DNA of 28,488 nt from Deinococcota bacterium (GTDB taxonomy: Bacteria; Deinococcota; Deinococci; Deinococcales; Trueperaceae): the NCBI GenBank assembly GCA_039025155.1, contig JBCCOX010000001.1:1-28488 (forward strand). The letters are read 5' to 3'. Position numbers and translations under genes: made by a program. Shown here one piece after another: positions 20,577 to 22,080 of the stretch. The notes below the pieces were generated by a model, which saw only the letters and a list, made by a program, of their open reading frames with translations, was not told the DNA's origin and ran no database searches. Every line of letters begins with the position of its first letter. Positions within the stretch are counted from its first letter, which is position 1.

Positions 20577-21197
20577 CTAGGCAAGACCTAGCAACTCGCA
20601 CTCGTAGTCGAAGTTTTCCCGTGGGTCGTCATGCCAACAGACAGTCGAGTCGATAAACTCACCGTTGCAGAACACAGCACCAAAGCCAGCGTTGCGACTG
20701 GATGAATCGAAGTGTGCTGTCTCGCCTGTTTCGACACTGGCTTCTTGGAAGGTGAAGTCGCCCAGGTCATAGTCTGGATTGTGTTGGAAGCGCTGCGCTT
20801 GCTCCCAAGTTACAGATGAAGGATATTGCTCGAGCCAGCTTGTGCGACCGTTGACGATGCACTTGACCTTGCGAAACTCAGACCGCACAGGACGCTTTTT
20901 GTGTACTGAAGGCTGAATGGCCCGCATGGTTTTCTTTGGCTTGGGAAGCGTGTCAGCCAGCTTAGCAACTGCGTAGGCAACTGCGAGCGCTGCTTCCCGG
21001 TCTTCTGGTTCATGGTCAACGAGGACACGCCCACCACGGATACGGTGCTCTGCTGCTTCCTGAAGCGCGAGACGTGAACGGTCACAGTGTTTCCAGAGGT
21101 CACGAAGATGCTCGAGCATGGAAAGCTTGCAGTAGGTGTGCTGCCCCTGAAGTTCCAGAGGCAGATGATTAACAAACTGAGAGACAGACAGATTCAT
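20577..21197 (-). CDS. Hypothetical protein
   Basis: 206 aa with normal composition. ATG overlaps the upstream stop (ATGA) and a terminator follows. No family recognised. Confidence 0.65.
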   Translation of the reverse strand: MNLSVSQFVNHLPLELQGQHTYCKLSMLEHLRDLWKHCDRSRLALQEAAEHRIRGGRVLVDHEPEDREAALAVAYAVAKLADTLPKPKKTMRAIQPSVHKKRPVRSEFRKVKCIVNGRTSWLEQYPSSVTWEQAQRFQHNPDYDLGDFTFQEASVETGETAHFDSSSRNAGFGAVFCNGEFIDSTVCWHDDPRENFDYECELLGLA

Positions 21198-21823
21198 GAC
21201 TGCTCACCCCCGCGAAACAGAGGGCAGGAAGCAGGCGACCAACGATAGCAATGAAAGCCAGCCAGTTTTGCAGCGTGCCAGCAGCCCTGACCCAGCGAAG
21301 GCAGGACAGAAAGCGACGACGCAAACACAAAGACCGGAACGCGACGCGCACAAAGACCGAGAGAGAAGAAAGTACCACGCCCGACCGAGTCACCCACGAA
21401 CGCCACAGCAGCAGTGAGCCGACCAGATGTGCCGATGAGACGTGACCGACCGAACAGCGCACCCGCTGCCTGCTGGCGAGTGCAGCCCGGCAAAGCAGAC
21501 CCAAACCGAACAGGCACACCCGCTGAGACAGCCGCAGAGACCGAAGGACGAGCAGCCACCGGACAACCAGCAACCAACTGCCACGCAAGCACCACCAGCG
21601 ACGAATGACGGACAGCAGCAGGTGCAGAAGGCAGGCAAGCGAGAAGTGATTCCAGCGCCCACGAGTCAGGACCGACAGCACCACCCGCAGCGATGCCGAG
21701 ACCGTCAGCAACGCAGCGTGACACAACACGATGAACAGCAAGACGAAAAGATTCAGAACACGAGCGCGAACCAAGCACCCAAACGAAACCACCAGCAGGA
21801 CGAGATTTGCGAGATACAGCCAC
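21194..21823 (-). CDS. DprA/SLOG-like Rossmann-fold protein
   Basis: VLGSRS, GGAVGPDS..LE, 'FGRSRL', AVAF, GRGTFFS fit the DprA/SLOG pattern. Coupled to the next gene. Confidence 0.6.
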   Translation of the reverse strand: MAVSRKSRPAGGFVWVLGSRSCSESFRLAVHRVVSRCVADGLGIAAGGAVGPDSWALESLLACLPSAPAAVRHSSLVVLAWQLVAGCPVAARPSVSAAVSAGVPVRFGSALPGCTRQQAAGALFGRSRLIGTSGRLTAAVAFVGDSVGRGTFFSLGLCARRVPVFVFASSLSVLPSLGQGCWHAAKLAGFHCYRWSPASCPLFRGGEQS

Positions 21824-21865
21824 GATGAACCCCCAAACAGGAAAGAATGAAACGGAAAACCGAAC

Positions 21866-22080
21866 AACACGAACATGTACAAAACACCGTGACAGTCAAG
21901 CCCGAGCGCAGCGAGCTTGAGAGCTTATGAACGCGTTTGTTGAGTTAATTGCCTGTTTGTTGAGTTAAATTTGCACCGACTCGTGACAGTTCCGGTGATG
22001 GGGGCTAGATGCCCCCGGAAGCGGTAGCGTCAGCTAAGCGAAGGCTTGACAGAACGGTACGCTAAGGAGACATGTGTGTT
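21866..22080 (+). promoter_or_regulatory. Long imperfect hairpin, candidate ssDNA promoter or single-strand origin
   Basis: Arms AACAC..ACATGT..ACCGT..GTCAAGCC and GGCTTGAC..ACGGT..ACATGT..GTGTT. TTGACA in the 3' arm, TAGCGT at 22025, inner GGGGGC/GCCCCC stem. Confidence 0.45.
21935..21968 (+). repeat. 14-bp direct repeat x2 (GTTTGTTGAGTTAA), period 20
   Basis: Exact copies at 21935-21948 and 21955-21968. Confidence 0.85.

Follow-up and report, generated by a model that had tools for sequence, protein, structure and literature searches.

A nearly adenine-free DprA-family gene next to a candidate single-strand promoter in mobile elements of marine Deinococcota, with adenine-poor relatives in other phyla

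The stretch of DNA considered here (28,488 nucleotides (nt), referred to as the window; contig JBCCOX010000001.1 of assembly GCA_039025155.1, from a Deinococcota bacterium of the Trueperaceae) carries the establishment module of a mobile element found in one marine genus of the Deinococcota. A gene on the minus strand of the window (positions 21194 to 21823) encodes a DprA-family (Rossmann/SLOG) protein of 209 amino acids, and its coding sequence is strikingly poor in adenine; the assignment is based on a reading frame conserved in four genomes, on the pattern of substitutions over codon positions, and on an AlphaFold2 model. The gene starts with GTG (21823-21821), and its TGA stop codon (21196-21194) overlaps the ATG of the following gene in the form ATGA. 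Among the three other species of the genus (G001, G002 and G003; the window's own genome is G000), the same overlap is present in G003, whereas G002 instead has a TAG just before that ATG. Upstream lies a 5' leader that is likewise poor in adenine (21824-21880, minus strand), recognized from its T count and from an alignment of eight loci. It contains an adenine-free ribosome-binding site, GGGGG (21830-21834), 6 nt upstream of the GTG, and the block TTTGGGGG(T)nnnn-GTG is kept in all eight aligned loci. An imperfect fold-back of about 215 nt follows on the template strand (21866-22085, plus strand); its fold energy and the conservation of its stem mark it as a candidate promoter that works on single-stranded DNA (ssDNA). 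The original prediction, which had been made from the letters of the window, had placed the adenine-poor gene at the head of the module, and this holds: the co-oriented order is DprA-like gene, ORF206, ArdC-like gene, ORF137, a small open reading frame (ORF), and a Rad52-like gene.

The base counts given in that prediction are exact, with 35 T among the 600 plus-strand bases from 21301 to 21900 (5.8%) and none at all between 21301 and 21360. Over 21194-21900 there are 47 T (6.6%) versus 25.5% T across the whole window; the lowest T fraction in 200-nt windows is 0.04 (at 21444), and the other bases never fall below 0.105 in the window. The depletion begins near 21200 and stops near 21900, and the sharp boundaries towards the neighboring genes that had been noticed are indeed there, the transition taking about 50 nt on either side. 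A composition scan of the whole assembly (5.0 Mb, 766 contigs, of which the window is contig 1; 300-nt windows) identified the region 21301-21900 as that with the lowest content of any base (mean 0.252, standard deviation 0.038). The same scan found only two other stretches in which one base stays below 9%, C121:1910-2244 (poor in A) and C246:6404-6710 (poor in T), which are shorter, much milder, and unrelated. The lost plus-strand T has been replaced by both A and C, rather than by a single base. The low T content recurs in the other three species of the genus, as well as in JGI, ENA, and Logan assemblies that are independent of this one, and is therefore no assembly artefact. A plasmid collection contained no DNA match to the stretch, and no Rfam family matched it.

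Stop codons cannot be formed without T on the one strand or without A on the other, so that 21200-21880 is open in all six frames, and an open frame alone means nothing in such DNA; the homologous stretch of G001 has about 6 T in 830 nt. Across all four species there is one frame on the minus strand that stays open and can be aligned, and the indels in the core of the four-way alignment measure 3, 12, and 6 nt, all of them multiples of three. Differences between G000 and G002 are distributed over codon positions 1, 2, and 3 as 28, 17, and 88. The ratio of non-synonymous to synonymous divergence (dN/dS, by the method of Nei and Gojobori) is 0.1 to 0.16 among G000, G002, and G003 and about 0.4 with respect to the more distant G001, while dS ranges from 0.76 to 1.26 over all pairs of the four genomes. 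The species are thus far apart at silent sites, and the dN/dS values together with the codon-position pattern place the protein under purifying selection. Taken together, the alignments show that 21823 to 21197 (minus strand) is a functional gene under purifying selection.

The messenger RNA had been described as nearly free of A, and this is borne out by the counts at codon positions 1, 2, and 3, which are 8, 18, and 15 of 210 each; the protein contains, as stated in the original prediction, two Lys residues and no Asn. The bias also enters the non-coding leader (6 T in the 77 plus-strand bases 21824-21900). It had been argued from this that the needs of the protein are insufficient as an explanation, and the silent sites agree: A occupies 6% of the four-fold degenerate sites in this gene but 19-26% of those in the four genes that follow in the same orientation, and GTG serves as the start codon. 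Hence, nucleotides have been selected, and not the requirements of the protein only. Orthologues go further still. The G001 gene has 7 A in 717-726 nt, that of locus L010 has 2 in 615, and those of L011 and L013 have 10 and 23, respectively; the Deinococcota lineage reaches 0.3-1% A. Only ten amino acids can be encoded without A (F, L, S, C, W, P, R, V, A, and G), and they make up 88 to 99% of the residues in the orthologues. The invariant Asp of the motif GGAxGxD is retained even where it is almost the sole residue that requires an A; the protein P0009 has a single Asp, and it is that one. The loss of silent A and the retention of A-requiring residues only at invariant sites are the signature of selection against a base, balanced by function. 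A separate, strong, and long-lasting pressure therefore keeps A out of the coding strand of this gene, and thus T out of its template strand.

The protein shaped under this pressure shows only weak matches to PHROG and Pfam. It scores 17 bits (E 0.003) against the Pfam DprA family (PF02481, DNA_processg_A), and its G001 orthologue scores 19.9 bits; both values lie below the curated cut-off of 29.6 bits. Relatives found by the profile search described below (E 1e-20 to 1e-9 to the window protein) and the adenine-poor relatives from other phyla reach 33-55 bits. A sequence-profile search of the PDB gave no match. An AlphaFold2 model built with an alignment of eight relatives has a predicted local distance difference test score (pLDDT) of 86 and a predicted template-modelling score (pTM) of 0.83, and its comparison with the PDB by Foldseek retrieved the DprA-like antitoxin ShosA (8zva) and DprA itself (4ljk, 5mll, 3uqz, and 3maj), with E-values from 2e-5 to 4e-4 and template-modelling (TM) scores of about 0.55; the best-matching DprA structures are those of Helicobacter pylori, Streptococcus pneumoniae, and Rhodopseudomonas palustris. 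Matches to clusters of the AlphaFold database reach a TM-score of 0.79. The family motifs GSR..LP, SGGAxGAD, R(N/S), and (S/G)RG(T/S) align with the pocket of the H. pylori protein that receives a base of ssDNA, and to which Arg143 and Asn144 belong (PMC3950713). Across 40 aligned family members the two G and the D of GGAxGxD, as well as the R and a further G, are invariant, and the Asn beside the invariant Arg is replaced by Ser in the adenine-poor members. According to the model, the protein is a stand-alone Rossmann protein of the ssDNA-binding DprA type and a new, divergent member of that family.

The trait is present in all four species of the genus and in the four metagenome contigs that were read; the gene itself occurs in four of four species, and in none of the 360 other Deinococcota genomes searched. 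Among 1.8 billion representatives, a profile search recovered 158 clusters, which form the wider family, and a scan of named genomes gave 23 loci; the 40-sequence family alignment was too diverse for such a locus scan. Among the 120 clusters with at least 140 amino acids, the share of residues that require A ranges without a gap from 0.5% to more than 50%, and it is below 10% in 29 of them. Adenine-poor members were found in Saganbacteria (4.7% A in the gene), Margulisiibacteriota (9%), WOR-1 (7-8%), two metagenome-assembled genomes of Deltaproteobacteria (4-5%), and Syntrophobacteraceae (7-12%), the latter including the isolates Desulfoferrobacter suflitae and Desulforhabdus sp. TSK; over all of these groups, the flanks contain 21-34% A and the third codon positions 2-6% A. 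GC-richness is ruled out as the cause by adenine-poor genes that reside in genomes with a GC content of 34-37% and still have only 3-6% A at third positions. In the relatives from outside the Deinococcota, the avoidance is limited to the coding sequence, as leader, ribosome-binding site, and last codons do contain A. On a maximum-likelihood tree, the adenine-poor state needs at least six changes forced by well-supported branches, a count derived under a model that the heterogeneity of composition violates. We regard the presence of the pressure in several phyla as shown. At five loci of the Saganbacteria/WOR-1 group (L022, L024, L026, L028, and L040), the last codons of the adenine-poor gene, ..AGGAGGTGnTTTAG, double as the ribosome-binding site (AGGAGG) of the next ORF. 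In this group, that ORF is conserved, small (about 70-80 amino acids), and rich in Cys, and it is followed in L024 and L026 by a gene for a large serine recombinase.

The fold-back upstream of the gene is held together by a long-range stem. Its proximal arm (21895-21902, plus strand) reads GTCAAGCC on the template strand, corresponding to GGCTTGAC on the mRNA strand, and pairs with 22043-22050 when the ssDNA is folded. The distal arm (22043-22078, plus strand), delimited from the eight-locus alignment, consists of GGCTTGACA, a spacing of 6 nt, TACGCT (of the form TAnnnT), and the conserved GGAGACATGTGTG. Between the arms lies an inner hairpin, GGGGGC-TAGAT-GCCCCC (22000-22016, plus strand), which is kept in the four genomes and has undergone a compensatory change from C:G to T:A. 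The loop also contains an exact tandem pair of the 14-nt sequence GTTTGTTGAGTTAA, 20 nt apart (21935-21968), which is present in G002 and partly in G003. Eight Deinococcota loci share the arrangement GTCAAGnn ... nnCTTGAC, with the two parts about 130-200 nt apart, upstream of the gene. The stem hexamer is unchanged in seven of the eight loci for each arm, the exceptions being GTCACG in G002 (CGTGAC on the mRNA strand) and CTTGAG in G003, and the two bases adjacent to it vary jointly in the two arms (GG in the G000 type and in G001, CC in L014 and L011, GC in L010). The DNA fold of the plus (template) strand has an energy of -36.7 kcal/mol (z = -2.9 versus shuffled sequences), and the long-range stem is part of the minimum free energy fold in six of the eight loci. 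The TAnnnT of the distal arm (TATAAT in L010) sits in an internal loop and is followed by the conserved GGAG.CATGTGTG.

A clearer form of this arrangement is seen in the Saganbacteria/Margulisiibacteriota/WOR-1 group. In the four loci whose whole arm was read (L022, L027, L028, and L040), the distal arm of the template strand has the sequence TTGACA-N19/20-TGnTA(C/T/G)(A/G)AT, and further loci of the group show the TGnTAnAnT part. The proximal arm of the same group reads GTGACA ... TGCTCC or TGCTGTTCC on the mRNA strand and lacks a -10 element. In duplex DNA, the good promoter consequently faces away from the gene, and the gene-facing strand of the duplex is without a -10. Folding of the template strand would aim the good promoter at the gene, out of the base of the hairpin and with the -10 opposite mismatches. 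From the arms and their folds we infer a start site for such transcription, and a firing of the fold-back promoter that would be specific to the single-stranded state.

Relatives of normal composition have a different upstream region. In L043-L045 (26-40% A), the intergenic regions are only 130-150 nt long and without a fold-back; L044 and L045 possess a classical promoter of the TTGACA-N17-TATAAT type together with a divergent gene for an Xre-type repressor, and L043 has a divergent gene for an HU-type DNA-binding protein. The adenine-poor trait thus goes with the fold-back across phyla, in a comparison that includes three clear cases of normal composition and an ambiguous fourth one (L020). 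An automatic fold-back score failed to separate adenine-poor from normal loci and produced spurious seeds in G000-G003; the evidence for the fold-back consists of the alignments, the ssDNA folds, and the arm sequences read directly. The composition of homologues had been named in the original prediction as a check on its idea, and the outcome speaks in its favor: close and many distant homologues are poor in A, and those of ordinary composition are the ones with ordinary promoters.

The gene that follows in the module, ORF206 (20577-21197, minus strand), encodes a protein of 206 amino acids that belongs to no known family; it is translationally coupled to the adenine-poor gene through the ATGA overlap and has a normal composition, with 19% A at four-fold sites. 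A counterpart of it comes after the adenine-poor gene in most of the related loci: a gene for 204-232 amino acids stands directly behind in L011/L012, in the P0005 contig, and in L013, while in L009 a gene for 207 amino acids comes only after an insertion. This insertion (L009 3495-6442, the same element as G001:C29) is found in the G001 lineage and places a GmrSD-type restriction gene and a PIN-domain toxin pair behind the A-free gene, which in G001/L009 is closed by an intrinsic terminator of its own (GCCCCTTCGGGGGC and then a run of T). In the window, a strong terminator-like hairpin (20532-20557, minus strand) lies directly after ORF206 and before the ArdC-like gene, so that the first two genes are possibly transcribed as a unit of their own. 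The ArdC-like protein is composed of an ArdcN domain and a metallopeptidase. Related loci keep the same order, ArdA or ArdC being present together with small ORFs of unknown function; L011 is the only one of them with a recorded, faint match to Rad52.

On the right-hand side of the fold-back, a 1.1-kb cassette is bounded by two direct repeats of 84 nt (22227-22310 and 23392-23475, 89% identical) and contains, 630 base pairs (bp) from the adenine-poor gene, a pemK/mazF-like toxin gene (22456-22953) for which no obvious antitoxin gene is present. Homology with G002 and G003 stops at about the first of these repeats, and the other loci have other neighbors. Therefore, the cassette looks like an insertion into the end of the element, and the toxin is no conserved partner of the adenine-poor gene. 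A motif of about 30 nt, centered on (G)TGACTCGAGCCA, occurs five times around the module and inside the 84-nt repeats (20553-20582, 22121-22150, 22165-22194, 22269-22298, and 23434-23463); its copies could be iterons, or the site of a recombinase or of a repressor.

RNA polymerase can use a hairpin in single-stranded DNA as a promoter, as it does at the Frpo/ssi elements in the leading regions of F and ColIb-P9 and at the origins of filamentous phages and rolling-circle plasmids. We propose a compound reading of the locus in these terms: the fold-back would be a single-strand promoter, the gene would be expressed from an unpaired template soon after entry, and the three-letter code would protect this first expression. 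Transcription of the gene would occur mainly while its template strand is single-stranded, in DNA that has freshly entered the cell or has been displaced, and the upstream fold-back would restore a promoter by means of the distal arm of this strand. A template and a message of three letters would be an adaptation of the first burst of expression from a single copy, in which every target has been removed for agents that act on T in the unpaired template or on A in the first RNA. In this way, a DNA-coating protein could be available while the remainder of the element still lacks protection. We judge the chances of this compound reading to be a little short of even. As to the cause within this reading, we place the template slightly ahead of the RNA; the candidates at the level of the template are a thymidine-directed modification (DarT), lesions of T, and ssDNA binders with a preference for T or pyrimidines, including the single-stranded DNA-binding protein SSB or the product of the gene itself.

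A number of observations weigh against this proposal. We know of no avoidance of T in the leading-region genes that stand behind Frpo in F-type plasmids, and single-strand transcription alone does therefore not demand it. In the window, the -10-like hexamer is only 6 nt from TTGACA, a distance too short for a standard sigma-70 promoter. No relaxase (PF03432) and no coupling protein (PF02534) were detected in G000-G003, in assemblies that are 81-95% complete and by a search restricted to these two families. The sequencing runs that hold the stretch are all of DNA from a marine metagenome, and no RNA runs were found. With respect to DarT, the counterpart of the Thermus DarT target TNTC is not depleted (35 versus 34.8 expected) among the residual A of 25 adenine-poor genes, a count whose power is nil in the strict, nearly T-free members; because these 25 genes are related to each other, all such counts of residual A overstate significance. 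DarTG systems are present in two of the 13 carrier genomes searched, namely in G001, the strictest avoider of T in the genus, and in D. suflitae, and are absent from the other 11. The equivalent of the DarT target TTTW is in excess among the residual bases, and evasion of DarT is a possibility to which these counts lend no support. A complete pair of DarT and macrodomain genes (DarTG-like) was seen at L019 437-2145 (G001:C45). As to the product of the gene, the template keeps about 30% C, and DprA of H. pylori binds dT35 about 40 times better than dA35 and dC35 as well as dT35 (PMC3950713); an exemption of the gene from its own product would consequently need a pocket specific for T. Two further ideas have been considered. 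A weaker RNA:DNA hybrid is not borne out, since the stability is not lowered (-1.56 versus -1.51 kcal/mol per nt), and an unstructured ssDNA template finds no support, as the template is only slightly, and inconsistently, less folded.

Avoidance at the level of the RNA, in which an ssDNA template plays no part, could also account for a first message that is nearly free of A: it could escape endoribonucleases that require A (MazF/PemK-type enzymes, the HEPN proteins Csx1 and Csm6, or ToxN) or RNA modifiers such as CmdT, which ADP-ribosylates GA. The span of the bias in the Deinococcota, which takes in leader, coding sequence, and a GTG start, fits this view, as does the pemK/mazF-like gene that lies close by in the window. 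Among residual A, GA is depleted about 1.6-fold (244 versus 381 expected) and UA about 1.8-fold (212 versus 372), CA is enriched (566 versus 295), and the pattern is the same in the Deinococcota and in the other phyla; however, a deficit of UA with an excess of CA is a general trend among dinucleotides. ACA, the target of MazF, is not depleted (43 versus 27 expected), and neither is UACA (10 versus 8.6); with pemK adjoining the adenine-poor gene only in this genome, in a cassette peculiar to it, the idea of MazF evasion is weakened. In the other phyla, moreover, leader, ribosome-binding site, and last codons retain A, and the downstream cistrons of the same operon are left unprotected. All in all, we regard an RNA-level cause of this kind as unlikely, yet worth keeping in mind. 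The pressure might instead act on translation, the gene avoiding the codons of those tRNAs that are hit by anticodon nucleases or U-cleaving RNases (those for Lys, Glu, Gln, Asn, Asp, His, and Tyr, among others), so that its translation survives an attack or a shortage of tRNA. The composition of the orthologues, almost confined to ten amino acids, and the restriction of the avoidance to the coding sequence outside the Deinococcota are what one would expect in this case, and the classical targets of anticodon nucleases read NAN codons. Nevertheless, GTG uses the same initiator tRNA as ATG, which leaves the preference for GTG unexplained, the Deinococcota leader is poor in A as well, and CAG (Gln) is the commonest of the residual A-containing codons even though the known targets include tRNA-Gln. 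A GTG start and a leader poor in A thus favor a cause at the level of nucleotides over one at the level of tRNA, and we consider the latter improbable. The original prediction had offered three possible causes, namely a template that evades DarT2-like defences, a message that evades A-directed RNases such as MazF, and a translation robust to tRNA-Lys anticodon nucleases or to ATP depletion; the results do not single out any of these.

Mutation rather than selection is invoked by a third type of explanation, a local ratchet in which adenine-specific error-prone copying, as in diversity-generating retroelements, or a strand-specific deamination of adenine removes A, and selection rescues it where it is essential. 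The make-up of the protein, with R, G, S, A, V, and C in the place of K/Q/H, D/E, N, T, I/M, and Y, is indeed the outcome that single changes from A to G would have, and the boundaries of the bias coincide with those of the transcription unit. On the other hand, the neighbors of the gene within its operon and on its strand are of normal composition, the translationally coupled one included; the lost plus-strand T has been replaced by both A and C; the bias has persisted over a synonymous divergence of 0.8-1.3 and recurs in several phyla, with at least six changes of state on the tree; and no Pfam reverse-transcriptase domain was seen among the called genes and ORFs looked at in any of the loci. 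A bias that stops at a coupled neighbor, replaces T in two ways, outlasts the saturation of silent sites, and reappears in unrelated hosts renders a purely mutational cause unlikely, and we give the ratchet hardly more than an outside chance. Finally, the ORF might be a by-product of a non-coding compositional element, or several frames might be maintained for overprinting, for which the six open frames could be cited. As the main reading this is ruled out by substitutions that concentrate at the third positions of one frame, by core indels in multiples of three, and by the confident DprA fold; the relatives of normal composition, in addition, match Pfam DprA. We attach next to no probability to it.

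When compared with known systems, the protein resembles DprA/Smf (PF02481; 4LJK, 3UQZ, and 3MAJ) and ShosA (8ZVA) in its Rossmann-type DprA domain and in the motifs GSR...GGAxGxD and R(N/S)...(S/G)RG(T/S). Unlike DprA/Smf, it consists of this domain alone, without a SAM or a winged-helix/DML1 domain, is encoded on mobile elements, and is built from about ten amino acids by a gene that is nearly free of A; unlike ShosA, it has no ShosT-type toxin partner adjoining its gene. The upstream region can be likened to Frpo by its architecture, rather than by a sequence comparison: a long imperfect hairpin of the template strand, one arm of which would supply the hexamers, has an unpaired -10-like region and would read from its base into establishment genes. 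It differs from Frpo in the non-standard spacing of the hexamers in the window and in the lack of a relaxase, a coupling protein, or an oriT in view, and no such exclusion of a base is known from the genes behind Frpo. Escape from an enzyme by lacking its target is a principle shared with the avoidance of restriction sites and with ACA-less mRNAs; in the single-protein-production system, engineered mRNAs without ACA reportedly survive MazF and stay translatable. Here, however, a whole base rather than a motif is excluded from a natural gene, the amino acid alphabet of the protein is reshaped in consequence, and ACA itself is not avoided among the residual A.

Literature on A-less or adenine-free genes and on the composition of leading regions was searched as well, and no description of the trait was found. 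To our knowledge, no known form of codon bias or target avoidance consists in the selected exclusion of one base across a whole gene. The leading regions of plasmids carry islands of anti-defence genes (PMC11541004), and their compositional adaptation is reported, in the abstract of a second study (PMC13478746), as GC-richness and codon adaptation; the abstracts of both papers are silent on the exclusion of a base. The elements studied here share with such leading regions anti-restriction genes of the ArdA/ArdC type and genes for the handling of ssDNA, co-oriented behind a candidate single-strand promoter. They differ from them in having no recognisable conjugation genes and, in other phyla, in a large serine recombinase encoded downstream of the gene.

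What the present analysis contributes is the Deinococcota lineage, the contrast between fold-back and classical promoters among relatives, and the negative tests of the proposed agents. It is possible, and we offer this tentatively, that in several phyla invading elements write their first expressed gene, that of a DprA-like protein coating ssDNA, in three letters, on an ssDNA template read from a fold-back, as a counter-defence by an omitted letter against base-directed attack of the host on unpaired DNA or on the first RNA. If escape from such an attack is the cause, this would be a new principle of counter-defence and would imply a widespread activity of the hosts against thymine in unpaired DNA or against adenine in early RNA; if the cause lies in the transcription of a single-stranded template, it would amount to an unrecognised constraint on zygotic expression. 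Relatives that span the range from normal to A-free composition offer a ready natural experiment. Either way, the family supplies examples from nature of folded Rossmann proteins that need about ten amino acids and one essential Asp, which makes it directly relevant to work on reduced amino acid alphabets and on the origin of proteins.

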